DNA of 64,000 nucleotides from an uncultured Phycisphaera sp. (GCA_964646605.1 CAZYEX010000053.1:14929-78928), one strand, 5' to 3'. Positions 6,022 to 53,311 are shown, counted from the stretch's first letter. A program made the numbers and translations. The notes: a model not told the origin generated them from the letters alone.

Positions 6022-6043
6022 CGCGGGCTTAAGCCCGCGGCTC
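6022..6043. repeat. REP-like palindrome (family C) CGCGGGCTTAAGCCCGCG-GCTC
   Basis: Perfect 18-bp palindrome; related copy GAGCCGCGGGC-GCGA-GCCCGCG at 30651-30672. Confidence 0.6.
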
Positions 6044-6077
6044 GATGGGGGTGTCGAGGCGTTATCGGAACCAAGCC

Positions 6078-6929
6078 ATGTCCACTTGTCGATCAACCAG
6101 GCGTGCCTCGCGCGGGGCGTTCACGCTGATCGAACTGCTGGTGGTCATTTCGATTATCTCTCTGCTGATCTCGATCCTGTTGCCCTCACTGAGCCGGGCG
6201 CGGGACCAAGCGAAAAGTGTGCATTGTCTGGCGAAGCTCAAGGAGTATGGGAATGCTCTGGCGGCGTATGAGAACGTGACCAGCGGGGGTCTGCCTCCGG
6301 CCCTATGGAAGCCGGCGGAATCGGACCTTGCGGACCCCAACGACGCAGTCAAGGTCGACGTGGGGCGAGACGGCGAGCAGACTATCTCGTATGGTTGGTC
6401 GGAGATTCTGTTCACGTATGTTTACCATCAGGAAGTCCGCCTGCGGGAGTCGTTTCCGGTGCAGCGGAACATCGGCGGTCGGCAGTGGGAGAAGTATTTC
6501 ATCTGCAACGCGGCCGGGGACGACGGCCCGCACAGCGGGCATTATCGAGTCTACCTGCCCGCGTGGGGGGCGGGGTCGGTGGGGTTGGATCGCAAAGGAC
6601 GCTGGAACGAGAAAATCCGCGCGAACCCGTCTCGGGGGGCGCAGCGGGAGATGATCCGCCCGAAGCTGCCGCTGATCGGCGACGCCAACGAATTTTCGGA
6701 GCGCGGCGACGGCTTGGGAAACGACGACTGCAGCTACATCGACGCGGGGGAGGCCAACTATGCGGGGTCGGACGGGCAACGCAATGGGAACCGCTTCTCC
6801 GATCGCCATTACGGCGGCGGGAACTACCTTTTCCAGGACTTGCACGGGTCGTGGGACACGCGGATGCGCGAGGAATTGGCCCGGGATTTTGACCTCAACG
6901 GAATTGTCGATGTCGACGTTCAGCCGTGA
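6078..6929 (+). CDS. Prepilin-type N-terminal cleavage/methylation protein (DUF1559-like)
   Basis: GAFTLIELLVVISIISLLISILLPSLSRARDQAK; C-terminal RHYGGGNYLFQDLH (H-X9-DG-like). Confidence 0.9.
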   Translation: MSTCRSTRRASRGAFTLIELLVVISIISLLISILLPSLSRARDQAKSVHCLAKLKEYGNALAAYENVTSGGLPPALWKPAESDLADPNDAVKVDVGRDGEQTISYGWSEILFTYVYHQEVRLRESFPVQRNIGGRQWEKYFICNAAGDDGPHSGHYRVYLPAWGAGSVGLDRKGRWNEKIRANPSRGAQREMIRPKLPLIGDANEFSERGDGLGNDDCSYIDAGEANYAGSDGQRNGNRFSDRHYGGGNYLFQDLHGSWDTRMREELARDFDLNGIVDVDVQP

Positions 6930-36935: not shown

Positions 36936-38066
36936 TTACGTAACATCATGTTGGCACACGGTTTCGGGGAGGTGCGCTTCCGCGTGTTCGATCCAGGCCC
37001 CGCCGAGGACCGTATCGCCGTCATAAAAGACGACGGCCTGACCCGGGGTAATGGCCCGCTGCGGTTCGTCGAACGAAACGCGAAACCGATCCTCGTCGAG
37101 GCGATGCACCTTGGCCGGGGCCGCGGAGTGGAGGTACCGAATCTTCACCTGCGCCGCGAACTCATCCCCTAGTCCCTGGACCAAGAAGTTGGCTCGCTTG
37201 GCAATCAACGCGGGGCACAACAAATCCGCGTCGTCGCCTAGAGTCACGCGATTCTGCACGACATCGAGCGAAGTAACGTACACCGGTTTGCCCGCGGCGA
37301 TGCCCAGCCCGCGGCGCTGCCCGACGGTGTAGTGTCCGATCCCCTGGTGCCGACCCATGACACGACCCGATGAATCGACCACCTCGCCCTCGTGGAATCC
37401 ATCCGGGCGGCGCTCGCGCACCACCCGTGCGTAATTGCGGTCGGGCACGAAGCAGATTTCCACCGAATCGGGCTTGTCATGATTGGGAAAGCCCATGTTC
37501 GCGGCGATGGCTCGGACCTCGGTCTTGGTCAGTCCGCCGATGGGGAAAAGAATGCGGCCTAGGCGCTGCCGCCGCAGCCCGAAGAGCACGTAGGACTGGT
37601 CCTTACGCGAATCGACGGCCCGCAGGAGCACGGGTTCGCCGTTGCGAAGTCCGGTCCGCGCGTAGTGCCCGGTAGCGACGAAACTGGCTCCGACCGCGTC
37701 GGCGTAATCGAACAACTTGCCGAATTTCAGGCGGTCGTTGCACACCACGCAGGGGTTGGGGGTGCGCCCGCGGGCGTATTCGTCGGCGAAATAGTCGATG
37801 ATGCCGTCGAATTCTTCCTGAAAGTTCAGAGCGTAGAGCGGAACGCCCAACATGCCCGCGACGAAGCGTGCGTCGGCGGCGTCCACGGCGCTGCAGCAAC
37901 CTTGATGACGGTGACCCGCGGCGGGTTGCACCGGCGCATCCGAGGCGCCCACGCGCATGAACAGGCCGATGACTTCGTAGCCTTGCTCGATGAGCAGATG
38001 GGCGGCGACGCTGGAATCCACGCCGCCGCTCATGGCCACCACGACTTTTTCCCGTGCCGCCGACAT
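36936..38066 (-). CDS. mnmA: tRNA-specific 2-thiouridylase MnmA
   Basis: VVVAMSGGVDSSVAA, GRTPNPCVVCN, ATGHYA, KDQSYVL, DSVEICF, YTVGQRRGLG, AITPGQAVVFY. Confidence 0.97.
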   Translation of the reverse strand: MSAAREKVVVAMSGGVDSSVAAHLLIEQGYEVIGLFMRVGASDAPVQPAAGHRHQGCCSAVDAADARFVAGMLGVPLYALNFQEEFDGIIDYFADEYARGRTPNPCVVCNDRLKFGKLFDYADAVGASFVATGHYARTGLRNGEPVLLRAVDSRKDQSYVLFGLRRQRLGRILFPIGGLTKTEVRAIAANMGFPNHDKPDSVEICFVPDRNYARVVRERRPDGFHEGEVVDSSGRVMGRHQGIGHYTVGQRRGLGIAAGKPVYVTSLDVVQNRVTLGDDADLLCPALIAKRANFLVQGLGDEFAAQVKIRYLHSAAPAKVHRLDEDRFRVSFDEPQRAITPGQAVVFYDGDTVLGGAWIEHAEAHLPETVCQHDVT

Positions 38067-38206
38067 GCGGGGCATCCTACCGAGGACCCGCGGATCGTCC
38101 AACGGGCTCGCCGCTGCCGGCGGTGGGCTCCACACGCTTCTTGGCGCGGGCGGCACTACCACGGGACATTCCCGGTTGGTAAACTGAGCGGGGAGGTGAA
38201 CGTCCG

Positions 38207-38622: not shown

Positions 38623-39162
38623 ATGAGCACCGCGACAGTGACCGTCGAAAGAGGAACCACAGCCGACTATCAGCAAAAGCTCATGGGCCTTTTGGGAGAC
38701 CGCGATCCGTTGAAGGTCATGGTCCAGACGCCGAATGAACTCGCCCGGATCGTCAAGGAAAACACCGCCGAAGTTCTTCGCACGCGCCCGTTCCCGGGCA
38801 AGTGGACGCCGAACGAAGTGATCGGTCACCTTACGGACAGCGAATGGGTCTACGGTTATCGCGTCCGTCTCATTCTGTGCGAGAATCAGCCCACGATCCT
38901 GGGCATGGATCAGGACCTATGGGTCGCGGGTCAGCGGCATAACGACCGCGACCCCGGCGAGCTGGTCGAAATGTTCCGCCAGTTGCGGCAATGCAATCTG
39001 CACGTGTGGAAGCACCTGAGCCCGGCGGACCACGCCCGGACCGGACAGCACAACGAACGCGGCGCGGAGTCCTTGGGGACCATGTTGAGGATGGAAGCGG
39101 GTCACGATCTGTCGCACCTGGATCAGATCACGCGCTACCTCGCGGCGATCCGCGCCCACTGA
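38623..39162 (+). CDS. DinB family protein
   Basis: RPFPGKWTPNEVIGHLTDSE, GHDLSHLDQI; good RBS. Confidence 0.88.
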   Translation: MSTATVTVERGTTADYQQKLMGLLGDRDPLKVMVQTPNELARIVKENTAEVLRTRPFPGKWTPNEVIGHLTDSEWVYGYRVRLILCENQPTILGMDQDLWVAGQRHNDRDPGELVEMFRQLRQCNLHVWKHLSPADHARTGQHNERGAESLGTMLRMEAGHDLSHLDQITRYLAAIRAH

Positions 39163-39317: not shown

Positions 39318-41612
39318 ATGATGGTGGCGGGGGTTCTCGATCCAATGATGGCCGCGTTTGTAACCTCGGGTCTCGCGTGGGCGGGTGCCGGGGCCGTCTC
39401 CATCCCCATCCTCATTCATCTATTGGCCCGCCGACGCTTCCGGCGAATCCGCTGGGCGGCGATGGACTTCCTCGTCGACGCCGAACGCCGCAACCGCCGC
39501 CGGGTTCGCATGGAAGAATGGATTCTGCTCGCCCTGCGCTGCCTGGCGATGCTCCTGGCGGGTTGGCTCGTGGCACGACCGTTCGTCACGCCGTCGGGGA
39601 TCGCCTCGGCCCTGGGCGGAGCGCGGCGGATCGAACGGGTGTTCGTTCTGGACGACTCCTTCAGCATGGCCTACGAAACGCCCCAGGGGCAACTCTTCGA
39701 CCGGGCCAAGAGCGGCATCCGCCGAATGATCGAGTGGATTCGCCGCGAGACGCCGGACGACACGGTGACCCTGGTGCGGATGAGCGCCCCGTCCAAGCCG
39801 GTGGCCGCCGGGGCGTCGCTGGATGACTCGGGGGTCGAGGAATTGCTGGCCCGGTTGGAGGGTCAGAGCGTCTCGCACCGCCCCATCGACCCGCCGATGG
39901 TGTTCGAGGGAATTGCCGAAGCCTTGCAACGCGACGGGGGCATCGTCAACGCCGCCGTTTATCTGTTCAGCGATTTTCAACGAAAAGACTGGGGCATCCG
40001 AACGTCGGACGCCGGCGATGCGAAGGCGAGCGAATCCGTGGCCGCCCCGCTGGCCGCCTGGTCCGCCGGTGACCGGGCCTTGCGACTTGTTTTCGTCAAT
40101 ATCGGTGAACCGAACGCCGCCAACGCCGCGGTCACCGCGGTCTCGATTGCCGGTGGACAGTTGGTGGCCGGCGCGGAGGGAAACGTCCGAGCCGCCGTGG
40201 CGAACTATTCGGACCGCGCCCTCGGGAATCTCGAACTGAAAATCAGCGTAGACAACCGTGCCCAGGACTCCAAGACCATTCCCACGCTCGGCGAACGGCA
40301 ATCGGCGACCTGCGATCTGGAAGCCGAGTTCCCCCGCCCGGGCGACGAATCGGTCCGCATCGACATCGCCCGCGACGCCCTCACCGTGGACGACTCCCGA
40401 TTCACGGTCGCCGAAGTGGTCAGCGCCGTCCGCCTGCTGTTGGTCAACGGCGAACCGTCGGCTGACGGGTATGACGACGAGGTGGCACTTCTGGAGACGG
40501 CCCTTCGCCCCGAGGGCGAGGTCTTCAGCGGTTACGAGGTCGTGGTGGTCGATGAGGCGGGTTTGGAGGACGTGAGCCTGCCGAGCTTCCACGTCGTGGT
40601 GCTGGCCAACGTGTATCGAGTCGCGGAACCGACGGTCGAAAGGCTGGAACGGTTCATTCGCCAAGGCGGCGGACTGGTCGTGTTCCTGGGCGATCAGGTG
40701 GACGCGGAATCGTACAACTCTGCCCTTTATCGCGGCGGCGAGGGGGTGCTTCCTGCGGAAATCGGACCGGTGGTGCGTGCCCCGGATGCGGCCCATCTGA
40801 CCGTGGTCGAGCGACTGCATCCCGCGCTTCGCGCCGTGGGACGCGAGGACGATCCGCTGGGGCTGGGGCAGGTTCGTTTTGCGGAGTTCATGGCTTGCAA
40901 GCCGATCGGGGCGGAGAAGACCGAGGGCGAGCCGACGGACAGCGGACCAGCTCCCACTCGCACGGCCAAGGTCGTCGTCCGGTTCGACGATCCTGAGGCT
41001 CATCCTGCGGTCATCGAGGGGGACTTCGGGTTGGGACGCGTGGTGGTCTTCACCTCCTCGGCGGACAAGGAATGGAACGATTGGCCGGACCATCCGACGT
41101 ACCTGCCCGTCGTCGCGGAACTCGTGCGGCACGTTTCACGGCGGAGCGACACCGGCGTGGAGCAATTGGTCGGCGCGGTGATCGACGTGCCCGTGGACCC
41201 CGGCGTGTTCGCGGAAGAGGCCGTGGTACGTACGCCCGCCTACCCGTCCGAACCCGAGGTCACGGTCACGGCCACGACGTCGCCGGACGGACGCGGGCTT
41301 GTGGCTCGCTGGGAACACACCGAAACGCCGGGCGTGTATCAATTCGCCTTGCCCCGCCGCGAAGGCGGAGAGACCGTCCACCTGGTCGCGGTGAACGTCG
41401 ATTCCCGCGAAAGCGACCTCGCTATGGCGGGCGAAACGGAACTTCGGCGGGCGATGGGCGGGGTGGCGTTCGAGTACATACAGGGTTCGGATCGGCTGGA
41501 GGAGGCCGCGGGCGAGACGCGCATCGAACTCTGGCGGATCGTGCTCCTCGCCGCCGCGACGGTCCTGCTCACCGAGCAGTTCCTCGCCTGGCGCTGGGGG
41601 AGGAGACGATAG
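39318..41612 (+). CDS. BatA N-terminal domain + VWA + Ig-like + GATase1-like membrane protein
   Basis: PILIHLLARRRFRRIRWAAMDFL...LLALRCLA; VLDDSFSM; FSDFQ; GGGLVVFLGD; C-terminal TM. Confidence 0.88.
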   Translation: MMVAGVLDPMMAAFVTSGLAWAGAGAVSIPILIHLLARRRFRRIRWAAMDFLVDAERRNRRRVRMEEWILLALRCLAMLLAGWLVARPFVTPSGIASALGGARRIERVFVLDDSFSMAYETPQGQLFDRAKSGIRRMIEWIRRETPDDTVTLVRMSAPSKPVAAGASLDDSGVEELLARLEGQSVSHRPIDPPMVFEGIAEALQRDGGIVNAAVYLFSDFQRKDWGIRTSDAGDAKASESVAAPLAAWSAGDRALRLVFVNIGEPNAANAAVTAVSIAGGQLVAGAEGNVRAAVANYSDRALGNLELKISVDNRAQDSKTIPTLGERQSATCDLEAEFPRPGDESVRIDIARDALTVDDSRFTVAEVVSAVRLLLVNGEPSADGYDDEVALLETALRPEGEVFSGYEVVVVDEAGLEDVSLPSFHVVVLANVYRVAEPTVERLERFIRQGGGLVVFLGDQVDAESYNSALYRGGEGVLPAEIGPVVRAPDAAHLTVVERLHPALRAVGREDDPLGLGQVRFAEFMACKPIGAEKTEGEPTDSGPAPTRTAKVVVRFDDPEAHPAVIEGDFGLGRVVVFTSSADKEWNDWPDHPTYLPVVAELVRHVSRRSDTGVEQLVGAVIDVPVDPGVFAEEAVVRTPAYPSEPEVTVTATTSPDGRGLVARWEHTETPGVYQFALPRREGGETVHLVAVNVDSRESDLAMAGETELRRAMGGVAFEYIQGSDRLEEAAGETRIELWRIVLLAAATVLLTEQFLAWRWGRRR

Positions 41613-41726: not shown

Positions 41727-44210
41727 ATGATTCGATTCCCCTATTGGTTGACGACCTGCATCGCCGCGGCGGACTCGCGCGAGACCGAGAGCGTGGTCAC
41801 CGAGTTTCGCAACGTGCCCGAAGGGTGGCTGGGGTTGGGCGGAATGGCCCTGCTGGCGGCGCTGCTCTGGGGCGTGGTGTGGATGTATCGGCGCGAGGGG
41901 CGGATCGGGGCGTCGCCGCGGGTGCGGATGTTCCTGGCCGGCGTTCGATGCACGATCTTCGTGATCCTGGCCGCGATCCTCTTGGAACCCGTCAGTGTGC
42001 GAATTCTCCGCCGTTGGGTGGACTCGTACACCATCGTGCTGGTGGACGACTCCTCGAGCATGGACCTCGCCGATCGCTACCGCGACGAGGGGGCTGGTCG
42101 GCGCGTGCGGACGGTCATCGGCAACGACACACTTCCCATGCCGCGACGGCGAATCGTGGAGAAACTCTTCGCCGCCGCCGACCGCAAACTGCTCCGCGAT
42201 CTGACCCAAAACAACCGCGTGAAGCTCTACACCTTCGCGGACGACGCTCGACTCGTCGCCACGCTTCGCGCGGCGCATGAAACGCCGTCGCCGCAGACCG
42301 CGCCCGCGGCCGGCGCAGCCGCTCTGTCGGATCCCGCGGAGTCGCCGCTCGAATTCCCCGCCACGGGAGCACGAACCAACCTCGAGCGCGCGGTTCGGCG
42401 CTCGGTGGAATCGCTGGGCAGCGCCCCGATCGCCGCCGTAATCGCCTTCACCGACGGCGGGATCAACGACGGGGCGAGCGCTGAGCAGATCGCCCGCTAC
42501 GCCCGCGAACGCCGCCTACCCATCCACGTAGTCGGCTTGGGCGATCCCGCTCCGCCCCGTAACGTCCGCGTGACCGAGGTCCTCGCCCCGGAGAACGTCT
42601 TTCAAGCCGATCCCTTCGCCGTGACCGCGACGGTGGGCACGGAAGGGTTGGAAGGGGAGACGGTCCGCGTCCAGCTCCGCGAACGGCACGCCGACGACTC
42701 CGCGGAAGCGCGGATCGTGGACAGCCGGGACGTCTTCGTGGGCTTCAGCGGGGCCGGCGCCACCCTCACCTTCCAGCGCCGACAGGAGCGTGTGGGACGA
42801 TACCTCTACACCGTCGAGGCCGCCGCGGTCGCCGACGAATCAGTGGTGGAGGACAATGCCCGCCAGGCGACGGTGAACATCATCGACGCGCGGACCAAAG
42901 TTCTCCTGATCGCCGGCGGACCGAGTTGGGACTACCGCTACGTGACCACTTTGTTGCAGCGCGACGATACCATCGAGGTCAGTTGCTGGTTGCAGTCGGC
43001 CGACGTCAGCGCCGTCCGCGACGGCGACGCGGTCATCGATCACCTGCCCGCCACGGCCGAGGAACTGTTCGAGTACGACGTGATCCTTCTCATGGACCCG
43101 GACAAGGAGGAGCTCGACGAGGATTGGTGTCGCCTTGTTGACACTTTGGTAAGCGAGCACGGGGGCGGGTTGCTCCTCGCCGCGGCCCGCCCGCATACGC
43201 CGGAGTTCCTGCGGGAACGGGCGCTGAAACCCATTCACGATCTGCTGCCCGTCTCGCTCGACCCGGAGGCCGATCTGCTGCTCAACCAGATCGGTCACTA
43301 CCAGACGTCCGCGTCGCCGCTGGACATTCCGGTCTCGGCCTACGCCCACCCCATCCTGCGTTTGTCGGATGACGCCGTAGCCACCAAGCTCGCCTGGCAA
43401 GGCATCGGTGACGTCTACTGGCACCTCCCGGTTCTGCGGGAAAAGCCCGTGGCCACCGTCCTTTTCCGGCATGGAAATGCACGGATGCGAAACGCCTTCG
43501 GCGGGCACGTGCTGGCTGCGGTGCAGTTCGTCGGCGCGGGTCGAACGGGTTTTCTGGGCTTCGACGGCACCTGGCGATGGCGGCGTTTCGGCGAGCAAGT
43601 GTACGACCGTTTCTGGGTGCAAATGGTGCGATATCTTTCCCAGGGAAAGCTGCTGGGCGGCAGCAAACGGGCGACGCTGATCGTGGAAAACGAGCATCCG
43701 GCGCTGGGCGAAGCCGTCAACGTCAGCGCCCGCTTGCTGGACGCTCGATACGAGCCGATGGTGCGAACGGAAGTCGTGGCCCAGTACCGGGTGGACGACC
43801 AGAGAGTGGACTTCGTGCTGACCCCCAAGAGCGATCGACCGGGTTGGTATGACGGGCGGTTCGTTCCCGATCGCGTCGGCGCGTATCGCGTGCGGGTCAG
43901 CGCTCCGGGCGGTTCGGGCGGCGCGATCGAGGCCGAGCGCGAGGTCCTGGTGAGCCGGCCGAACCTCGAACTCGCCCGCCCGCAGATGAACAAGGCGGAG
44001 TTGACGCTCCTCGCTGAACAATCGAACGGCGGACGATTCTGGGAGGTGGACGAGGCCGCGAACTTGCCCGCCGCGATTCCCGATCTTCACGAGGAAGTCC
44101 CCGTCCGTTCACGTCCGAAAACGCTTTGGGACAACGGGACGACCCTCTCGCTGTTGGTGATCTTACTGGCGATAGAATGGGCGCTGCGGAAATGGAACCG
44201 ATTGCTCTAG
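41727..44210 (+). CDS. VWA domain + GATase1-like membrane protein (Bat-like cluster)
   Basis: N-terminal TMs, LVDDSSSM, FTDG, GGPSWDYRY, GTWRWRR...YDRFW, C-terminal TM EWALRKWNRLL. Confidence 0.85.
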   Translation: MIRFPYWLTTCIAAADSRETESVVTEFRNVPEGWLGLGGMALLAALLWGVVWMYRREGRIGASPRVRMFLAGVRCTIFVILAAILLEPVSVRILRRWVDSYTIVLVDDSSSMDLADRYRDEGAGRRVRTVIGNDTLPMPRRRIVEKLFAAADRKLLRDLTQNNRVKLYTFADDARLVATLRAAHETPSPQTAPAAGAAALSDPAESPLEFPATGARTNLERAVRRSVESLGSAPIAAVIAFTDGGINDGASAEQIARYARERRLPIHVVGLGDPAPPRNVRVTEVLAPENVFQADPFAVTATVGTEGLEGETVRVQLRERHADDSAEARIVDSRDVFVGFSGAGATLTFQRRQERVGRYLYTVEAAAVADESVVEDNARQATVNIIDARTKVLLIAGGPSWDYRYVTTLLQRDDTIEVSCWLQSADVSAVRDGDAVIDHLPATAEELFEYDVILLMDPDKEELDEDWCRLVDTLVSEHGGGLLLAAARPHTPEFLRERALKPIHDLLPVSLDPEADLLLNQIGHYQTSASPLDIPVSAYAHPILRLSDDAVATKLAWQGIGDVYWHLPVLREKPVATVLFRHGNARMRNAFGGHVLAAVQFVGAGRTGFLGFDGTWRWRRFGEQVYDRFWVQMVRYLSQGKLLGGSKRATLIVENEHPALGEAVNVSARLLDARYEPMVRTEVVAQYRVDDQRVDFVLTPKSDRPGWYDGRFVPDRVGAYRVRVSAPGGSGGAIEAEREVLVSRPNLELARPQMNKAELTLLAEQSNGGRFWEVDEAANLPAAIPDLHEEVPVRSRPKTLWDNGTTLSLLVILLAIEWALRKWNRLL

Positions 44211-44254
44211 AACCCAGCGCCGTAACGCCGAGCCTCGATCGCGGGCTGACCGAC

Positions 44255-44286
44255 CGCTTGCGGGCCCTGGTGGCGCGCTTGCGCGG
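44255..44286 (+). repeat. 32-bp direct repeat, copy 1 (remnant of the 5' end of gene 47483)
   Basis: CGCTTGCGGGCCCTGGTGGCGCGCTTGCGCGG; 31/32 identical to 47540-47571. Confidence 0.85.
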
Positions 44287-44389
44287 CGAGCGGGCGTTCG
44301 GCGGCGGTTGCCTAATCCGCGGGCGCGTGGTAGGATCGCGTGTTTGCTGGGTGGGGTTCCAAACCGCCCGGGGTCGCGGAGGGTTGAGC

Positions 44390-45421
44390 ATGACCAGAGG
44401 ACGAACGATCGTTATCGTCGCCTTGGGACTGCTCATGCTGACGCCCTCCCTCGCCCATGCTCAACGCATTTACTGGACCGATGGCGGGGTTCCGGGCGTC
44501 CATCGGTGCGACCTCGATGGAACCCACATTGAACAAGTCCTCCCCACTGGAACGGGCGGAATTGCGCTCGACTTGAGCGCAGGCAAGCTGTATTGGGCCG
44601 ACGAGGGCCCAGCCATCCGCCGGGCCAACCTCGACGGGTCCGACGTCCAGGAGGTGATCACGGACGAGTATGGAACGCCCTACAGAGTTGCGCTGGACCT
44701 GCTGCACGAGAAGGTCTATTGGAACAACGGACTCGGCATCTGGCGCACCGACCTGACCAACCCGGACGGATCCGAGATCGAAAACGTGATGTTCGATGCG
44801 GTGTCCGGCGGCCCTCCGTTCGTGCTGGACCCGGCTGGCGCAACGATGTACTGGACCGTGGGGGAGCCATCATTTCAGGCGATCATGAAGGGCGACCTGA
44901 ACGCGTCCAATCCCCAACAACTGATTACGGAAGGTCTGAATCGCCCCGGGTCGATTGCACTGGATGAGACGGCCCATAAGCTCTATTTTGGTGATGCTGG
45001 CTTTGATGCCGGGATTCGTCGTGCCAACTCCGACGGATCGGGATTGGAGTTGGTCGTGCCGTTTGGCAAGCACCAAGCGATCGCCCACGAGGTGGCCTTG
45101 GACATCCTTCGCGGAAAGCTCTATTGGACGGATCGGCGTCTTTTCAGCATCCACCGCGCCAACTTGGACGGCTCCGATCCCGAGAGACTCCCCATCGATC
45201 TCCCCTATGAACCCAGGTATGTCGCCATTGATGAACGCGTGCCGGGGGACTGTGATTCCAATGGGGCGATCGAGTCCGCGGATCATTTTCGGTTGGTCAA
45301 CTGTTTGGGCGGGCCGGGATTGGGCGCAGTCGTGGGCTGCACCTGCGCGGATACTAATGGGGACCAGGATGTTGATCTCGCTGACTTCGCAGTCCTTCAG
45401 CGAGCTTTCCAGGTTCCGTAG
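44390..45421 (+). CDS. Secreted YWTD (LDL-receptor class B) beta-propeller with dockerin-like tail
   Basis: Signal peptide; IYWTD, LYWAD, VYWNN, MYWTV, LYFGD, LYWTD blades; GDCDSNG...DTNGDQDVDLADFAVLQRAF. Confidence 0.88.
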   Translation: MTRGRTIVIVALGLLMLTPSLAHAQRIYWTDGGVPGVHRCDLDGTHIEQVLPTGTGGIALDLSAGKLYWADEGPAIRRANLDGSDVQEVITDEYGTPYRVALDLLHEKVYWNNGLGIWRTDLTNPDGSEIENVMFDAVSGGPPFVLDPAGATMYWTVGEPSFQAIMKGDLNASNPQQLITEGLNRPGSIALDETAHKLYFGDAGFDAGIRRANSDGSGLELVVPFGKHQAIAHEVALDILRGKLYWTDRRLFSIHRANLDGSDPERLPIDLPYEPRYVAIDERVPGDCDSNGAIESADHFRLVNCLGGPGLGAVVGCTCADTNGDQDVDLADFAVLQRAFQVP

Positions 45422-45478
45422 CCCGGAACTGGCCAGTACCCTCTCCGGAAACGATGGAACGTGTGCGGAGGCAAATCG

Positions 45479-47428
45479 ATGAAGCCGAGCAAGTGGTTAT
45501 CGAAGTGTGTTTTTCTCCTTGCCCCAGCGCTCGCCGGAGTGTCGAGCACCTGGAGGCAAACTCATGCAGGCGGTCCCACGCTTTCGACGATCGATCTCTG
45601 TAGCGTCCTAGGGCCGACGTGCATAAACCTCGCCCAGTCTCTCGTGGGGCCGAACATTGTCATCTCCAACGTCCAATGTCGAGCCGCCTGCCGGGCGGCA
45701 GGGCTGTTCCAAGGCGGCGCCGGCGTCCTTGGCTTTGAGAGCGGGGTCGTCCTCGGGACGGGGAGCATCGCGGAGGTTGCCGGACCCAACGACGGGCCTC
45801 ACCAAACAACCGGAAATGCCTTCCCCGGAGATCCGCGCTTGGACCCGCTGGCGTCAGGATGCGGAGTCGATTGTCTCACCAGGGACGCGACCATCCTGGA
45901 ATTCGACTTCCAGTTCGCGCCGGGCTGTCAAGCGCAAGACACGATCTCCTTCCAGTATGTTTTCGCCTCCGACGAGTACCACGAGTACCTCAACGACCCT
46001 CTGGTCGGCACCTACAACGACGTCTTCGCCTTTTTTCTCAACGGGGTCAACATTGCCCGGCTCCCGGGGACAATAAGCACGCCGGTCTCCATCGGCACCG
46101 TCAACTGCGGCTGGGGTGATACTTCACCTTGTGGGCATTGTCCCTTCACCTATCGCGATTGTCCGCCCTACGGCGGGTCCAACTGTGTTCTGTTGCGTAA
46201 CAATCAGTTCGATCCGCCGGTGATCGGCACTTGTAACTCGGTCGGGCCCGGAATCGACACCGAAATGGACGCCCTGACCATCGTTCTGACCGCAAGCGGT
46301 CCCGTGGACACGGCCCCGGGGGCGATCAACCACATCGTCCTGGGCATCGCGGACGTACGCGATCAACAGGTCGACTCGAACGTGTTCCTCAAGTCCGCGA
46401 GTATCGTCTGTCAACGCCCCACCGGCGCGTGCTGCGACAGCGCGGGCGGAACATGTACCGAGAACGTACTCGAAGAGGACTGCGCGGGTCAGTGGTACGC
46501 GGGGATCGACTGCGCCCATGTTCATCCCCCCTGCAAGGCCCCGCGGATGCTCGTGCTGCTCGATCGAACGGGGTCGATGAACGCGATTCGTGTGAAGACC
46601 GGGAATACCCGTTGCTTCGACGCCTTGCAGCGAGCGAAGGACGATGTGACGGAGTTCTTCACCAATCACTCGAACGGGCGCGTGGCGGTGTGGACGTTCA
46701 ACGGCGCGGAGCCGACCCCGCGCACCAACGGGTTCGTCGATCAGGCCGCGGCGCTGCCGGCCTTGAACGACCCGAGTGCGGCCGTCTGCCAGTCGCTGAC
46801 CCCGTTGGCGGAGTCGATGTGCGAGGCCGCCGACGCCCTGACCGCGCAACTGGCGGATCCGTCCGTGGGCGACTTGTTCTTGGCGGTCAGCAGCGACGGT
46901 CAAGAGAACCACAGCGATGGTGAATGCGCCGGACCCCACTCGACCGCCGGGACAACGAACTGCGGGCAGTACGACGCCCTTTCGTGGCAGAAAAAGGTGT
47001 GCGACAAGTTGATCGGCGCCGCCGTGGTGATGGCCAGATACTGGGGATCGCTGCAATTCACCGAGTCGAGCGGGATGGACCAGGAGACAGGGCAATTGCA
47101 AGGAGGCGCGGTGTCCGATTATGTGTTCTTCCAGAGCCTTGCCGAGGCGAGCGGCGGGCGCTTCGACCTCATGGACGATGCGGCCGCCCCGCCCACCGGC
47201 GCTTGCTGCGACGATGTCGATCGCTGCCGGGGCGGACTCACGTCCGACGCCTGCGCCGCTATCGGAGGGGCATACCTTGGCGACGGGACCGACTGCTCCA
47301 CGGTCCTCTGTAGCCCCAGGCCGGTCGTGATTCCGACCCTGTCGGAATGGGGTGTCATTGCCATGACGTTGCTTCTCCTTGTCAGTGGCACCGTGATTCT
47401 GGCACGCCAACACACTTTACCGATGTAA
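45479..47428 (+). CDS. Secreted choice-of-anchor-L-like + Cys-rich + VWA protein with IPTL-CTERM
   Basis: FQYVFASDEY...YNDVFAFFLNGVNIA...GIADVRDQQVDSNVFL; LLDRTGSM VWA; GACC repeats; IPTLSEWGVIAMTLLLL. Confidence 0.85.
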   Translation: MKPSKWLSKCVFLLAPALAGVSSTWRQTHAGGPTLSTIDLCSVLGPTCINLAQSLVGPNIVISNVQCRAACRAAGLFQGGAGVLGFESGVVLGTGSIAEVAGPNDGPHQTTGNAFPGDPRLDPLASGCGVDCLTRDATILEFDFQFAPGCQAQDTISFQYVFASDEYHEYLNDPLVGTYNDVFAFFLNGVNIARLPGTISTPVSIGTVNCGWGDTSPCGHCPFTYRDCPPYGGSNCVLLRNNQFDPPVIGTCNSVGPGIDTEMDALTIVLTASGPVDTAPGAINHIVLGIADVRDQQVDSNVFLKSASIVCQRPTGACCDSAGGTCTENVLEEDCAGQWYAGIDCAHVHPPCKAPRMLVLLDRTGSMNAIRVKTGNTRCFDALQRAKDDVTEFFTNHSNGRVAVWTFNGAEPTPRTNGFVDQAAALPALNDPSAAVCQSLTPLAESMCEAADALTAQLADPSVGDLFLAVSSDGQENHSDGECAGPHSTAGTTNCGQYDALSWQKKVCDKLIGAAVVMARYWGSLQFTESSGMDQETGQLQGGAVSDYVFFQSLAEASGGRFDLMDDAAAPPTGACCDDVDRCRGGLTSDACAAIGGAYLGDGTDCSTVLCSPRPVVIPTLSEWGVIAMTLLLLVSGTVILARQHTLPM

Positions 47429-47482
47429 CCCATAGAGGGTCGTCTCGATGCGCTTTCAAACCCAACCCGAGAGGCGTCGTCC

Positions 47483-49609
47483 ATGAACATGCACCCCACG
47501 CTTTTGCATCGGGCCACGCTGGACGAATCCGTGGCGGCACGCTTGCGGGCGCTGGTGGCGCGCTTGCGCGGATACGTTCTTCTCGAAGGGATCGCTCAGG
47601 CGGCGCTGTTCGTCGTGCTTTGTGCGGCGCTGCAATTCGCTTTGGACTACGGCCTGCGCGGATTGCGCTGGAGCATGCGCGCCGCCCTCCTCGGGGCGGT
47701 CGTGGGGGCGACGGGTTGGCTGATCTGGCGGCGCATCATCGCTCCGTTGAGCGTTCGCATGGGGCTGCCGGAGGCCGCCAATCTGGTGGAGCGACGATTC
47801 CCCGAGTTGTCTTCCCTTCTCGTGTCCGCGGTCCGGTTTTCGAGCGGGCAGGTGGGCAATCGACAATCGAATTCCCCGGCCCTGATGTCCTCGGTCGTGG
47901 CGTCCGCGTCGCGACAGGCCTCGCGCTTAGACTTTCAGACGGTCCTCGATTCGCAACGTGCCCGGCGGTCGGGCATGACCACCTTCGGCGTCATCGTCCT
48001 TTTTACGCTTGCCGCATGGCTCGCTCCACAAATGGTGGGCACCTGGTTCGCTCGCAACGTTCTTCTGGAAGAGATCGCCTGGCCTCAGAAGACCTGGCTC
48101 AAGGTCGACGTCCCGCAAGGCGGGTTGGTGGGGGCGCGGGGCGACGACCTAGTCCTCCAAGCCCATGCCGAGGGCGTCCAGCCGCAGGCCGTGGAAATCT
48201 TTTTCACCTCCGCCACTGGCGACGAGGGTCGCGAGACCATGGTGACCGTGGGCAGCGAGGGGGCCTACCGCTATCGCTACACCTTCAAGGATGCGCAGGA
48301 AGATTTTAGGTTCCATCTTGCGGGCGGCGACGACGAAACGGAGGAGTTCGAGGTGCGCTTACGCGATCGGCCGCGGGTGGAGCATTCGCAGGTCCGCATC
48401 GTGCCGCCTTCGTATACGGGTTTGAGCGAATCGATCCTCGGCGACGGCGAACGCGCGGCGCAGATTCTCCCCGGCAGCGAGGTGACCTTCGACATTCGCG
48501 CCAACAAGCCGATCACGACGGCTTCGTTGATGGTCGGTGCCAAGGTCGCGGTATCGGCCTCAACGGACGGCGACCATGTCATCGCGTCCGTGCGACCCTT
48601 GGAAACGCAGACCTATCATTTCGCGCTGCTCGATGAGTTCGGCTTGGAAGACCGTCAACCGGCTCGCTTCGCCCTGCGGGTCATCAAGGACGAACCGCCG
48701 CGGGTTCGCATGAAACTTCCCGGCGTCGGCGAGATGATCACGCCGGACGCGGTGCTCCCCATTGAGATCGAGTTCAGCGACACGTATGGGTTGGCCTCGG
48801 CGGAACTCGCCTTCCAGGTCACCCGCGACGACGCCCGTGAAGGGACCATTTCGTTCGACGGTTTCTCGCCGAAGCAAACGACTTTTTCCACGTCGGTCCC
48901 CTGGCCCGTGAGCGCCGCAACGGTCGCACCGGGCGATCGCCTTACGCTTGTCGCCCGCGCCGCGGACTTTGACGACGTGTCCGGCCCCAACACGGGCCAG
49001 TCGGCTGAGTTTTCCATGCGCGTCGTCACTCGGGACGAGCTTTTGGCGGAATTGGCCCGTAAGGAACAAGAATTCCGCATGGACTTTGAGAGACTCATCG
49101 ACGCGCAGGAACAGCTTCGTGGCCGCCTCCTTACACTTATCGGACTTTCAACCGGCGACCGATCCACTGAATCTTTTTCCTTGGAGGCGTCGAATCTTGA
49201 AAGGCGACAAAGGTCGATTGCCGGGTCGGTAGGGGTGGTTCGGCAACAAGTGGAGCAGATTCTGGCCGAAATGCGTATAAACCAAGTGGCCACCCAGACC
49301 GTCGAGGAGCGGGTCGGGGGGGGCATTGCGGAGCCGCTGGGGCGGTTGATCACCCGCGATTTTCCTCTGGCGGCGGACACGATCCGGCAGTGGTCGCGGG
49401 AAGCCCAGGGTGAGGCCGGGGGGCGGGTGGACCCCCAGCAGGCTGCTTTGTTGTCACAAATGCGCGCCGTGCTGGCCAACATGCTACAATGGGAAGGGTA
49501 TCAGGAGGCGGTCAACATGCTCCGCGACATCCTTCGCTTGCAGCAGGAATTGCGAACGGAGACGAAGGATGCAGCGGGCAAGCAAGGGACCGGAGTGTTC
49601 GATGATTGA
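47483..49609 (+). CDS. DUF4175-like membrane protein (TMs, Ig-like domains, coiled coil)
   Basis: RLRALVARLR start, NLVERRFPELSSLLVSAV, WFARNVLL..WP, DEPPRV, AADFDDVSGPNTG. Confidence 0.8.
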   Translation: MNMHPTLLHRATLDESVAARLRALVARLRGYVLLEGIAQAALFVVLCAALQFALDYGLRGLRWSMRAALLGAVVGATGWLIWRRIIAPLSVRMGLPEAANLVERRFPELSSLLVSAVRFSSGQVGNRQSNSPALMSSVVASASRQASRLDFQTVLDSQRARRSGMTTFGVIVLFTLAAWLAPQMVGTWFARNVLLEEIAWPQKTWLKVDVPQGGLVGARGDDLVLQAHAEGVQPQAVEIFFTSATGDEGRETMVTVGSEGAYRYRYTFKDAQEDFRFHLAGGDDETEEFEVRLRDRPRVEHSQVRIVPPSYTGLSESILGDGERAAQILPGSEVTFDIRANKPITTASLMVGAKVAVSASTDGDHVIASVRPLETQTYHFALLDEFGLEDRQPARFALRVIKDEPPRVRMKLPGVGEMITPDAVLPIEIEFSDTYGLASAELAFQVTRDDAREGTISFDGFSPKQTTFSTSVPWPVSAATVAPGDRLTLVARAADFDDVSGPNTGQSAEFSMRVVTRDELLAELARKEQEFRMDFERLIDAQEQLRGRLLTLIGLSTGDRSTESFSLEASNLERRQRSIAGSVGVVRQQVEQILAEMRINQVATQTVEERVGGGIAEPLGRLITRDFPLAADTIRQWSREAQGEAGGRVDPQQAALLSQMRAVLANMLQWEGYQEAVNMLRDILRLQQELRTETKDAAGKQGTGVFDD
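47540..47571 (+). repeat. 32-bp direct repeat, copy 2 (inside gene 47483)
   Basis: CGCTTGCGGGCGCTGGTGGCGCGCTTGCGCGG. Confidence 0.85.
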
Positions 49610-51566
49610 CCCACGTCCCATCCGCGAGGGCGGAGCGCGCCTGGGCTTGCGCCGTGGGCGGCGGGGCGCATTCGCACTTCCTTCGCCGGCACGATTGTTG
49701 GCGGTTATGGCCATCTCTTTGTGGGGCGGGTTCCTGGCGAACACCGCAACTGCGACCGACACGACCCCACCGGCTGAATTTCACCCGCTGGCCTCGAAAG
49801 AGGAGATGATCCGGGATCGGTTCCAACGGTTCCAGGATCGGATCTTCCGACTGCGCGAGCAGCTTTCGCAAAGCGAGCCGGAGAATGCCGCACGGTTGGC
49901 ACGGGCGTTGACCCGCGCCGGCGAGTTGGGACTGGCCGAGAAACTCGAAGAGATCATTCGCCAACTTCGCGATTCGTCCTCCTTGGATCAGTCGGTGGAC
50001 GCGCAGGGAAGTTGGATCGAGGACGCCGATCGCCTGCTCAATCTTCTCCTGGAGCAAGACAGCAACAACGAAGAGCGGAAACGGGAATTGGAGCGTCTGG
50101 AGGCATACCGTCAAAAGCTCGCCGAGATTCTCGCCCAAGAAAAGGGACTGCGTGCGGACTCCGCCGACACGGGCGCGGCCGAGCGACTCTCCAAGCAGGT
50201 GGACCAAGCCCTTCGCCGCGCCGAGGCGCTGCTCAAGCGGCAGGAGAGTCTGTCTCAATCCACGCAGAAGCAGGCGGCGTCCGGCGGCGAGTCGTCCCGA
50301 CCGTTGGGTGACGAGCAACAGACACTTTCGCGCGACGCAGAGGAGCTGGCCAAAGAGTTGGAGCGGCTCAGTGCCGCACCGTCCGAACAGGCGGCGGAGT
50401 CGGGGCCCATGTCGGCGGCGCGGTCGCAGGTGCAGTCCGCAGGGGAATCCACGCAGAGCGCATCCGGTTCGATGTCCCAGGCAGGGCAGCAGTTGAGCGA
50501 AAACAAGCCTCCGGAGGCGAAGGAACCGCAGGAGAAGGCGGAAGAGTCTTTGCGCGAGGCGATCGAGCGCTTGCAGGAGGCCAAGAAGGAGCTGAGCGCT
50601 CCCAAGCAACCCCCGGCGGAAATGGCCGAAAAGCAGCGCGGCGTCGCCCAGCAAACCGGCGGGCTTTCCGACCAGATGCGTCAAGACGCTTCGTCCGAGC
50701 AGGGCGGTCAGCAAGGTCAGCCCAAAGAGGGTCAAAAGGGCGGCGGCAAGAGCGGCGCCAAAACCCCGGGGCTACAAAACCTCGACCAGGCCGAGCGAGA
50801 GATGAACGGGGCCGCGGAATCGCTCGACGCCAACACTCCCCAAGAAGCGACGCCCAAGCAGGACAAAGCCATCGCCGAGTTGGAACAGGCGCAGCAGGAA
50901 CTCGAACAAGCCCTCGAACAGCTTCGCAAGGAACAGCGCGAGGAGACGCTCCGCGATCTCGAGGCACGGTTTCGCGACATGCTCACCAAGCAGAGGCCCA
51001 TCAACGAATCGACGCTCGCTCTGGATCGCCTGGGGTCGTCCAACTTCCGTCGCGCCGAGGAGTTGCAGCTCGCCGATCTCTCGACGGCGCAGCGCGGGCT
51101 TTCCGAGCAGGCGGCGACGTGCCTGCACATTCTTGACGAGGAGGGTTCGACGATCGCGTTTCCGCGGGTGGTGGAACAACTCGCCGAGGACATGGCCGCG
51201 TCGGGGGAGCGTCTGGCGGGGCTGGACGTGGCGGCGATCACGCAGGCGATCCAGCAAGAAATCATTGACACGCTCGAACAGTTGCTCGAGTCGGTCAAGA
51301 AAATGCAACAAGAAAATGAACAATCGAATGGGTCGCAGTCGCAGAGCGACAAGGAGCCTCCGCTGCTGCCGGCCTCGGCGGAGCTCAAACTCCTGCGATC
51401 GAGCCAACTTCGAGTCAACACGCGGACGGCCACCATCGCCCAAAGCGCGGCGAGCGGCGTCGAGGATGTGCAAAAGGCGGCGCAGGCCTTGCGGAAACTC
51501 GCCGCCCGGCAGACCGAGTGTGCGGAAATTGCCAAGCAGATGCGCGATCGAGAACAGGGCCAGTAG
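49602..51566 (+). CDS. Secreted long coiled-coil protein (DUF4175-family-like)
   Basis: Signal-like segment, then Q/E-rich heptads; AELKLLRSSQLRVN motif; ATG49602 preferred. Confidence 0.75.
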   Translation: MIDPRPIREGGARLGLRRGRRGAFALPSPARLLAVMAISLWGGFLANTATATDTTPPAEFHPLASKEEMIRDRFQRFQDRIFRLREQLSQSEPENAARLARALTRAGELGLAEKLEEIIRQLRDSSSLDQSVDAQGSWIEDADRLLNLLLEQDSNNEERKRELERLEAYRQKLAEILAQEKGLRADSADTGAAERLSKQVDQALRRAEALLKRQESLSQSTQKQAASGGESSRPLGDEQQTLSRDAEELAKELERLSAAPSEQAAESGPMSAARSQVQSAGESTQSASGSMSQAGQQLSENKPPEAKEPQEKAEESLREAIERLQEAKKELSAPKQPPAEMAEKQRGVAQQTGGLSDQMRQDASSEQGGQQGQPKEGQKGGGKSGAKTPGLQNLDQAEREMNGAAESLDANTPQEATPKQDKAIAELEQAQQELEQALEQLRKEQREETLRDLEARFRDMLTKQRPINESTLALDRLGSSNFRRAEELQLADLSTAQRGLSEQAATCLHILDEEGSTIAFPRVVEQLAEDMAASGERLAGLDVAAITQAIQQEIIDTLEQLLESVKKMQQENEQSNGSQSQSDKEPPLLPASAELKLLRSSQLRVNTRTATIAQSAASGVEDVQKAAQALRKLAARQTECAEIAKQMRDREQGQ

Positions 51567-51589
51567 TCGCGCAATGGGGAGGTTGGGCT

Positions 51590-52612
51590 ATGCAAACAAC
51601 GGTTCGAGGAAGTTTGGCGCTTACGGTGGGCGCCTGGGTGGCTGTCGCAGGTGTCGTCCACGCGGCGGAGGTCGGACCGGTGGACCGCTTCCTCGTGGGA
51701 TTGGAGTCCGCGGCGCTTCCCGGTTCTGCCAAAACGCTGCTTCAAGAGCAGTGGAAAAAGTGTGACGGTTGCGACCCCCACGAGTTTCTCACGCAAGCCC
51801 TGGCCGTGGTGTCGAGCGAGTTCCGCGAGGGGCTGGATGCCTTCGACGCCGACGAGTACGAGCGCTGTGCGGGGCGCATGGCGGGGCTGACCCAAGACGC
51901 CGATCCCTTCCTCGCGGTCCACGCGGGGGTCTACGAGATCAAGGCCTTGGTGGAGTTGGAGCGGCTGGTCGAAGCCGGGGCGCGGATCGCGGAGCTGACC
52001 TCCGATGGCGGAGCGAAGCTCGCCGCACATTCCTACTTCGCCGCAGAGATCGAGTTCCTCCGCGGGTTCTGTATGGTGGCCGACCTGCAATACGACGCGG
52101 CGGAGGATGCCCTGGCGCGATTCCTGACGGAGTTCGGGGATGCGCCGCAGCGGTTGACTTTGGCCGCCAAGCAGATGCTCGCCGAGCTTGCCAACCGTGA
52201 GCCGGGTGGGATGGGCGAGGTCGCCGATTTGATGAACTACTCCGGGCGACGGCTGAAAAGCTCCGACGGCGGGGAGGTCGTCCAGACGCGCCAACAGCGC
52301 ATCCTCGAACTGCTCGACGCGCTCATCAAGGAGGCCGAGGAGCAGGAAAAGAAGAGTTGCAACAGCGGCGGATCAAGCGGTCGTGCCAGCGGCAAGTCAC
52401 CGGCCACACCCATGTCGGAATCGGGCCTGCCCGGCGGAAGTCCGCAAAGCGACGCCATGCGCGCCGCCCGCCGCGCCAACCCCGGCGAAGTCTGGGGCAA
52501 CATGCCCCCCGGCGAACGGGAACGCATCCTGCAGGCATTGCGGGAGAGCTTTCCGGCCCGCTATCGCCAACTTGTCGAGCAGTACTATGAGGAGCTTGCC
52601 AAGAAGCCGTAA
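51590..52612 (+). CDS. Secreted TPR-like helical protein
   Basis: Signal peptide; EVADLM...QQRILELLDALI; WGNMPPGERERILQ...FPARYRQLVEQYY tail typical of Bat-cluster terminal proteins. Confidence 0.7.
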   Translation: MQTTVRGSLALTVGAWVAVAGVVHAAEVGPVDRFLVGLESAALPGSAKTLLQEQWKKCDGCDPHEFLTQALAVVSSEFREGLDAFDADEYERCAGRMAGLTQDADPFLAVHAGVYEIKALVELERLVEAGARIAELTSDGGAKLAAHSYFAAEIEFLRGFCMVADLQYDAAEDALARFLTEFGDAPQRLTLAAKQMLAELANREPGGMGEVADLMNYSGRRLKSSDGGEVVQTRQQRILELLDALIKEAEEQEKKSCNSGGSSGRASGKSPATPMSESGLPGGSPQSDAMRAARRANPGEVWGNMPPGERERILQALRESFPARYRQLVEQYYEELAKKP

Positions 52613-52665
52613 GGCGAGGGAATCGAAGGTCGCCGGAGGGCCCTTGATGCCGAAGGTGATTTCCC

Positions 52666-52980
52666 GTGGTTGCCAACATTGACTTGAATCACGACGAACT
52701 TGCCCGACTTTGTCGGCGTCACGACATTCTGCGGTTATCGCTGTTCGGGTCGGTGTTGCGGAACGACTTCGCCCCAGGCAGCGACGTCGATGTGCTCGTG
52801 GAGTTCGATCCACAGGTCGTCGTCGGATTTCGGATTTTCCGCGTGGAGGAAGAACTTTCGCGGCTCTTTGGCGGGCGCTCCGTCGACCTGATCGACCCTC
52901 AGTACGTAAACCGATGCCTGCGCGAGCCTATCCTTTCCAGCGCTGAAGTCGTGTACGACGCGAACGATGGTCGGCGCTGA
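52666..52980 (+). CDS. mntA: MntA-type nucleotidyltransferase antitoxin
   Basis: FGSVLRNDFAPGSDVD = G-S-X10-D-X-D. Confidence 0.88.
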   Translation: MVANIDLNHDELARLCRRHDILRLSLFGSVLRNDFAPGSDVDVLVEFDPQVVVGFRIFRVEEELSRLFGGRSVDLIDPQYVNRCLREPILSSAEVVYDANDGRR

Positions 52981-53311
52981 TCGGATCTTCGTTCAGCAGA
53001 TGATCGACCACGGGCGCAAGGCGCTCGCGCGCATCGCGGACAAGCAGCACGCGGATTTCGACGCCGATGAGGACCTTCGGATCGTCGTTTTGCACTTGGT
53101 GCAGATCCTCGGGGAGGCCGCCCGCAAGGTGAGTCCCGATTTTCGCAACCTACATCCGCAGATTCCGTGGAACGACATCATTGGGATGCGGCACAAGATC
53201 GTCCACGACTACATGGACATCAACGAACGAATCCTGTGGGAAGTCGTTCGCTATGAACTCGGGCCGCTGCTGGAACGACTCGAGAGGCTGGTTTCCCACG
53301 CGCCTCGGTAG
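52967..53311 (+). CDS. hepT: HepT/DUF86 HEPN ribonuclease toxin
   Basis: GMRHKIVHDY = R-X4-H-X-Y; overlaps mntA. Confidence 0.88.
   Translation: MVGADRIFVQQMIDHGRKALARIADKQHADFDADEDLRIVVLHLVQILGEAARKVSPDFRNLHPQIPWNDIIGMRHKIVHDYMDINERILWEVVRYELGPLLERLERLVSHAPR

Follow-up and report, generated by a model that had tools for sequence, protein, structure and literature searches.

How can two genes come to lie in the middle of an operon, just ahead of a gene which remains intact, without any recombinase of their own? The question is raised by a stretch of 64,000 nucleotides (nt) from an uncultured Phycisphaera sp. (GCA_964646605.1 CAZYEX010000053.1:14929-78928; hereafter, the window). Here a two-gene insert, called the cassette, separates the gene of an 827-amino-acid (aa) protein from the DUF4175-like gene which directly follows it in relatives. 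The insert is bracketed by two copies of the start of the DUF4175-like gene. It is probable that homologous recombination brought the cassette in at the 5' end of this gene, a 32-bp segment shared by the two copies being the crossover patch, that recombination also spread it, and that its interior was replaced at a later time.

Two copies of one gene start around two unrelated genes

The 32-mers are direct repeats lying 3,285 bp apart. They are identical at 31/32 bases, the sole mismatch being C at 44266 and G at 47551, and both encode the peptide RLRALVARLRG in the frames of the respective gene starts. The eight codons immediately 5' of them are loosely related (SLDRGLTD versus TLDESVAA, 9/24 nt identical by hand count). 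Similarity drops sharply at both edges of the 32-mer, and copy 1 then enters unrelated sequence. Taken as a whole, the duplicated unit is a gene start of ~90 nt, the left and right copies of which are called X_L and X_R (Table 1), and near-identity is confined to its last 32 nt. An earlier, sequence-only reading of the window had described the same pair at the same coordinates, the shared peptide, the loose alignment of the upstream codons and the loss of similarity past copy 1, and all of this is confirmed. A chance repeat is ruled out: such a match was obtained in 0/100 shuffles, a chance expectation of nil, and the pair is the sole significant self-similarity of the region in a blastn comparison with the 64-kb window (E 1.6e-8). 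No further copies of either the 32-mer or the cargo were found in the window. An inverted repeat in the same area (I6, 44132-44148 / 47434-47450) was judged to be fortuitous, being one among 14 similar pairs in 5 kb.

Foreign genes bracketed by direct repeats might be taken for the footprint of a transposon, the repeats being a target-site duplication, or for an assembly chimera. Both are highly improbable. No transposase is encoded between the repeats, terminal inverted repeats are missing at the cassette ends, and the duplicated unit measures ~90 nt, of which just 32 are identical. The 32-mer is better read as a patch of crossover or conversion by homologous recombination than as a target-site duplication. 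In run X1 (DNA, Logan contigs) a single contig spans positions 43000-48992 with zero differences, and in run X2 each junction is crossed by separate contigs. The recovery of the structure in these two independent metagenome assemblies, and in the homologous loci L005 and L006 from other samples (see below), rules out an artefact, a doubt already entertained in the sequence-only reading. Neither an empty allele nor a circle junction was seen among the X1 and X2 contigs, a weak negative, as contigs drop rare variants.

Copy 1 had been credited with no start codon, which proved to be wrong. An ATG in frame with it is present at 44192-44194, and overlaps by 19 nt the gene of the 827-aa protein, which ends with TAG at 44208-44210. 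The same 19-nt start/stop overlap is seen in 11 cassette-free loci of clade A, a group of relatives described below. Because in relatives the gene of the 827-aa protein directly precedes the DUF4175-like gene, with such an overlap in these 11 loci, X_L is the original start of the gene in its original place. Outside the window, the sole BLASTN match of X_L among the fetched loci is the native 5' end of the empty locus L057 (54 nt, 78%). In ungapped 30-nt comparisons with native starts L057 scores 20/30 and the others 14-18, a small margin; the gapped BLASTN match is stronger, yet covers 54 nt. The empty loci closest to the window, L012 (~6042-6090) and L057 (~9960-10000), lack the 19-nt overlap and have ~35 nt between the two genes. 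The N-termini of their DUF4175-like proteins are unusual for the family, and L057 features a second CTGTAG shortly past its start, suggestive of a minor duplication at this place. The frame of X_L continues in the first cargo gene, and the two make up one stop-free open reading frame (ORF) of 409 codons (44192-45421). There is consequently a risk that X_L and this gene are annotated together as an N-terminally extended YWTD protein with a buried signal peptide.

At the other border a new spacer precedes X_R and provides a ribosome-binding site, GAGAGG; X_R encodes a different N-terminus, and fuses to the gene body at the 32-mer. BLASTN relates X_R to native 5' ends of clade A (L002/L009, 66 nt, 80%) and to L115 (first 44 nt, 84%), not to L057. 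Copy 2 sits inside an intact gene, as had been proposed, and X_R yields an ORF of 708 aa. The matches of the two borders indicate that the first ~21 codons of copy 2 are a substitute that arrived with the cargo, and that copy 1 is the displaced original end. The N-terminus of the DUF4175-like protein in the window lineage is chimeric.

Table 1. Features of the cassette and of its surroundings, in window coordinates
Feature	Position	Strand	Remarks
BatA/VWA gene	39318-41612	+	PF07584, E 3.7e-14
Upstream operon gene, 827 aa, weak VWA	41727..44210	+	Orthologues (67-71% aa identity) directly 5' of the DUF4175-like gene in relatives
X_L, original start of the DUF4175-like gene, displaced	44192..44286	+	ATG at 44192 plus 31 codons (MEPIALEPSAVTPSLDRGLTDRLRALVARLRG)
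Repeat copy 1 (32-mer)	44255..44286	+	Repeat detection; proposed crossover or conversion patch
Left non-coding cassette end	44287..44389	+	103 nt; junction CGCGG followed by CGAGCGGGCGTTCGG, conserved in L005 and L006
Cargo gene 1, secreted YWTD (LDL-receptor class B) beta-propeller with C-terminal dockerin	44390..45421	+	PF00058, E 8.9e-20; PF00404, E 5.1e-6
Cargo gene 2, choice-of-anchor-L (CAL) plus IPTL-CTERM	45461..47428	+	Database gene call begins at 45479
Young right cassette end	47192..47482	+	54-nt spacer with GAGAGG, preceded by the final ~77 codons of cargo gene 2
X_R, putative substitute 5' end	47483..47571	+	MNMHPTLLHRATLDESVAA plus 32-mer; start now used by the intact gene
Repeat copy 2 (32-mer)	47540..47571	+	Repeat detection
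DUF4175-like gene, intact, 708 aa	47483..49609	+	Homology to relatives
Two further conserved genes	from ~49600	+	3' of the DUF4175-like gene

The cargo is made of two genes only. The product of the first shows a signal-peptide-like segment at its N-terminus. The second matches NF038133 (E 6.9e-56, residues 50-308) and TIGR04174 (E 1.3e-5, residues 618-643). A YWTD-dockerin gene followed by a CAL/VWA/IPTL gene had been announced in the sequence-only reading: domain matches support the YWTD, dockerin, CAL and IPTL parts, and the middle part of cargo gene 2 is presumably VWA-like, a label taken over from that reading. In agreement with that reading, the cargo bears no relation to the operon, and the domain scans revealed neither an integrase nor a transposase gene between the repeat copies. 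No recombinase was found on either side in the flanking ORFs scanned, which lie at 30 to 39 kb and at ~53 to 55 kb of the window. Searches of viral contigs with the 32-mer and with cargo gene 2 were negative, and a phage origin was discarded on this ground.

The left end of the cassette (cassette junction sequence CGCGGCGAGCGGGCGTTCGG) hosts a promoter-like arrangement, i.e. TTGCCT (44308-44313), a 17-nt spacer and TAGGAT (44331-44336), and GGAGG is found 7 nt before the ATG of the YWTD gene. The site remained below threshold in a promoter scan of the window (8/12 consensus positions), and, judged by its sequence, may function as a promoter. In run X3 (labelled metagenomic RNA-Seq) contig depth is 3.3-5 over the cargo, 0.5-1.8 over the gene of the 827-aa protein and 0.3-0.8 over the DUF4175-like gene. 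The pattern is compatible with a cassette promoter, and is a weak indication, since depth of contigs measures expression poorly, carried-over DNA may contribute, and the data are unstranded. In the same run the genes 3' of the DUF4175-like gene (50450-53063) exhibit the top contig depth of the region, ~10.6-12.

Empty sites, filled sites and cassettes elsewhere

About 115 related loci, each denoted here by L and a number, were fetched and sorted by tblastn. No relative of the window above 69% protein identity emerged from the protein search. In 76 loci the gene of the 827-aa protein adjoins the DUF4175-like gene (some of them are one contig fetched twice), and the empty arrangement that the sequence-only reading had suggested looking for exists in relatives. 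Besides the window, two distinct loci are filled, L005 (identical to L007; GCA_964421865.1) and L006 (GCA_041486225.1). The insertion is not private to the window genome. The left junction, ...CGCTTGCGCGG joined to CGAGC(G/C)GGCGTTCGG, is common to the three filled loci. The left non-coding end and the signal-peptide codons of L005 and L006 are 79-81% identical to those of the window; in the left non-coding end taken separately 75/99 nt are the same in the window and in L005. On the right, the window shares with L005, L006 and L115 a homologous cassette end and a homologous substitute start, which begins with MN..

The left copies of L005 and L006 differ from that of the window. Their X_L is an ORF of 30 codons (MDSPVVERHRPTLDESVTARLRGEPAFGGA, then a stop), which lacks 21 nt of the 32-mer and ends at a TGA located within the -35 box TTGACT. 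The 21-nt gap is consistent with slippage between two CGCTTGCG motifs. In L005, X_L matches the functional start of L054, an empty sister locus, without a difference over its first 58 nt. Identity between left and right copies in L005 and L006 spans codons 9-23, further upstream than the 32-mer of the window.

These data bear on the hypothesis that the cassette is a site-specific element devoid of integrase, either mobilisable in cis or the relic of a decayed island, with an attachment (att) core residing in the 32-mer and a tyrosine or serine recombinase acting in trans to integrate the cassette, along with a replacement start, into the gene start. The architecture mirrors that of the e14 element in icd (PMC13626634), and the features in common are direct repeats, the reconstitution of the target gene and the existence of empty sites. 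However, no identical core common to the filled loci is evident, neither the cassette nor the scanned flanks encode a recombinase, and viral contigs match neither the 32-mer nor the cargo. The patches of identity vary from lineage to lineage, an argument for general over site-specific recombination, and an element of this kind seems quite unlikely.

The filled loci vary in content. L005 (5819-7939) has two tandem YWTD genes, which share 68% aa identity with each other; the window and L006 have one. In L006 an in-frame TAG (3958-3960) cuts cargo gene 2 just inside the IPTL-CTERM membrane anchor, and the tail of this gene, at 66% aa identity to L005, has diverged further than the host genes (95%).

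L115 carries a remnant. Its DUF4175-like gene is preceded by the final 77 codons of cargo gene 2, by the same spacer, and by a start reading MKMRPSLL.. Upstream of the remnant lies a second, distinct IPTL-CTERM gene (2-887), which features FG-GAP and TSP3 repeats; the left border is beyond the end of the contig. It would seem, then, that the site has housed several surface-protein genes in succession.

The YWTD and CAL genes also occur as a pair at unrelated sites: before a metallophosphoesterase gene (L113, L118), between feoAB and an amino-acid kinase gene (L114), beside an aminotransferase gene (L116), and before an M14 peptidase gene (L120+L117). In L113, L114 and L120 the YWTD gene is likewise preceded by TTGAC(T/C/G)-N17-TA(G/A)(G/A)(A/G)T. 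The recurrence of gene pair and promoter-like site at unrelated positions marks the cassette as an independent unit. The proteins closest to the window cargo are encoded by the cassettes at these unrelated sites (YWTD 53-55%, CAL 60-63%) rather than by L005 and L006 (YWTD 47-48% aa, CAL 57-61% aa). Just upstream of YWTD in L116 (1396-1734) and L120 (150-250) are dockerin-like C-terminal remnants (…DVDLADVA.FQR…), which may be leftovers of earlier YWTD/dockerin genes.

Divergence along the cassette and the route of acquisition

Neighbour-joining trees of three operon proteins agree with one another. Clade A includes L005 and L006, which lie in it beside L002/L054 (92-95% identity), both empty. 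L115 clusters with L008 and L001, also empty. The window shares a branch with L012 and L057, likewise empty, and has ~68% identity to everything. Along the DUF4175-like protein, clade-diagnostic residues of the window are scattered, 25 being of A type and 20 of B type, and carry no information on mosaicism, the window being close to a third lineage; sliding protein identity is noisy.

Host genes and cassette ends have diverged to different extents. At fourfold-degenerate sites the host genes of the window differ from those of L005, L012 and L057 by 54-60%, i.e. are saturated, and the host DUF gene of L005 differs from that of L115 by 53%. Cargo gene 2 without its tail differs between the window and L005 at 108/162 sites (67%). 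In contrast, the divergence of its last 77 codons is 8/40 (20%) between the window and L005, 10/41 (24%) between the window and L115, and 9/44 (20%) between L005 and L115. The tail departs significantly both from the rest of cargo gene 2 (Fisher test, p 1e-7) and from the host gene used for comparison, in which 157/277 sites differ (p 1.4e-5). At the nucleotide level the right end of the window is 85% identical to L115 and 80% to L005 by BLASTN, and the 54-nt spacer is 83% identical in the window and L115. At the left end, the window differs from L005/L006 at 6-7 of 20 fourfold sites over the 42 opening codons of YWTD, versus ~70% further in. The low divergence at both ends implies that these share a much more recent ancestor than either the host genomes or the cassette interior. 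The ends look horizontally exchanged, and the cassette looks like a mosaic.

Cargo gene 2 of the window contains a 21-nt direct repeat (20/21 identical; 46418-46438 / 47192-47212), the copies of which encode the PTGACCD opening two Cys-rich modules. The second copy coincides with the start of both the low-divergence tail and the L115 remnant, and the repeat may be an internal recombination point.

The main alternative is a single ancient insertion. According to this hypothesis, the insertion took place in the common ancestor of the lineages, was accompanied by a duplication of ~90 nt of the gene start, and was followed by vertical descent and repeated precise losses, the 31/32 identity being the result of recent intragenomic gene conversion. 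The interior is indeed as diverged as the hosts, or more. L005 and L006 differ at 19-29% of fourfold sites in the cargo and at 25% in the host genes, which match, and the cassette appears to have been vertically inherited at this time scale, cargo proteins changing three to four times faster. Quartet sites (11:9:5) place L005, L006 and L054 in a near-trichotomy, which permits one precise loss in L002/L054 as well as its absence, and direct repeats ease losses. However, at least five or six independent precise losses would be required on the neighbour-joining tree. The 20-24% fourfold divergence of the right end, versus 53-59% in host flanks, would be left unexplained. Moreover, a decayed X_L is predicted, but X_L still encodes an N-terminus resembling that of the family, and matches the native 5' end of L057. 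An ancient insertion is hence an unlikely, though not negligible, explanation.

Acquisition by homologous recombination accommodates these features. We infer both the pathway and the direction of transfer as follows. The right end of the incoming DNA would have carried its own copy of the first ~30 codons of the target gene along with a ribosome-binding site, and its left end the tail of such a gene-start copy. Crossover would have taken place within the 32-bp patch, where the portable and the resident starts were identical, or nearly so, and the insertion would have occurred at codon ~32. A circle entering through a single Campbell-type crossover and a linear fragment entering through a double crossover or conversion would leave the same product, and the two routes are inseparable. 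The native start would be left on the left side, overlapping the upstream stop, and the cassette start would be found on the right side, fused to the native gene body. Such a fusion would keep the DUF4175-like gene intact. The process would be carried out by the homologous recombination of the host, with no involvement of integrases or transposases. Later, the interior may have been replaced by sequences from other cassette loci. The same repeats could delete the cassette precisely, and its excision through them is plausible. The sequence-only reading had proposed integration or recombination at the 5' end of the gene, followed by restoration of the latter. The 76 empty loci, and an unrelated cargo devoid of recombinase, uphold the core of the proposal; among the points to be amended is the nature of copy 1, which represents the native start.

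A few data fit less comfortably with such a route. Between the window and L005/L006 the interior has reached saturation (CAL and YWTD identities given above), and a simple, recent transfer of the whole cassette therefore does not fit unless the interior was replaced afterwards. At 95 nt or less, the homology on offer to a crossover is short, and the native genes sampled show differences at 4-12 positions in their 32-mers. The assignment of X_L and X_R to lineages relies on 54-66 nt, and the low synonymous divergence at the ends could reflect in part a constraint at the nucleotide level. A donor lineage is not represented among the fetched loci, and the X1 and X2 contigs contain no excision product.

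Going one step further, there is a lesser chance that the cassette belongs to a class of integrase-less cassettes carrying gene starts. In such cassettes a portable copy of the first ~30 codons of the target gene and the ribosome-binding site would serve as a homology arm, host recombination might insert the units, and precisely remove them, at the same codon in species saturated at synonymous sites, and the variable surface-protein interiors might be swapped, through the conserved ends, with those of cassettes elsewhere on the chromosome.

Known systems and operon context

Campbell-type integration is mainly familiar from suicide-plasmid genetics. There, as here, two copies of a fragment flank the insert, the left one joining native upstream to insert downstream sequences and the right one insert upstream to native downstream sequences, and identity is confined to the crossover patch. 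The difference is that a natural case across lineages, with 95 nt or less of homology, is only proposed in this work, and that no circle was seen in the contigs.

The cryptic prophage e14 in icd of E. coli, at whose other border is the displaced fragment icdC (Hill et al. 1989, via PMC13626634), provides a close parallel. An end supplied by the element keeps the target intact, a displaced native fragment lies at the other border, the border copies are direct repeats identical in a short patch, and deletion gives a chimeric functional gene. In contrast to e14, the cassette replaces the 5' and not the 3' end, measures 3.3 kb, and consists of two surface-protein genes with no integrase or phage genes. 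As in gene-targeting integrative elements, the target gene is reconstituted by sequence borne by the element, and empty sites exist in relatives.

Homology-facilitated illegitimate recombination (HFIR; PMC3240628) and the sequential displacement of modules in Vibrio cholerae's type VI secretion system (T6SS) effector-immunity arrays, as in the orphan 3' ends of Rhs and contact-dependent inhibition (CDI) genes (PMC5361080), are further terms of comparison. In the T6SS, Rhs and CDI cases, as in the cassette, a foreign module is found beside a conserved homology anchor, old pieces persist as remnants, a dedicated recombinase is not needed, and the distribution among relatives is patchy. Unlike in those systems, the anchor is here a short copy of the start of the neighbouring gene that comes as part of the cassette, one segment is present as a copy at both borders, and the displaced piece is a gene start rather than an immunity gene or a toxin tip.

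The cassette is thus set apart from the closest known cases by the replacement of a 5' end, the absence of a recombinase, borders which are copies of the same ~90-nt start, and ends younger than the interior. Its borders are homologous, a patch of identity is found at the joint, and its flanks are of different ancestry (X_L akin to L057, X_R akin to clade A and L115), as in islets acquired through homologous recombination. The cassette is best described as a recombination-borne gene islet lacking an integrase, and not as a new kind of mobile element. It represents a natural example of how a foreign transcription unit can be gained inside an operon, leaving the interrupted gene unbroken, without obvious mobile-element machinery. 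The genetics of Planctomycetota is little explored. If the homologous recombination hypothesis is true, short conserved gene starts may act in this phylum as landing pads for the exchange of surface-protein genes across species.

Bat (Bacteroides aerotolerance) operons include MoxR, DUF58, BatA and VWA genes. The host context resembles them in featuring a gene with BatA domain and VWA, a large VWA-like gene and downstream membrane proteins, but MoxR and DUF58 do not adjoin BatA in the window. They are unmatched anywhere in the 64 kb, and relatives have both directly upstream of BatA. The "Bat-like operon" of the sequence-only reading accordingly holds for the BatA domain, and lacks MoxR and DUF58. 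We know of no described Bat operon to which the cassette genes belong. The name DUF4175 for the target gene had to be softened as well. The window protein has no Pfam match at E 0.01 or better, PF13779 included, and PF13779 is found in three homologues (precomputed annotation); the label DUF4175-like is therefore based on homology only.

On the 5' side, BatA is preceded by a DinB_2 gene (38623-39162), and a gene for an MnmA-like tRNA methyltransferase is located on the minus strand (36936-38162). After the operon, an ORF encodes a HepT-like ribonuclease toxin (52967-53311; PF01934, E 2e-20), and is overlapped from upstream by another ORF (52666-52980), which could encode an antitoxin.

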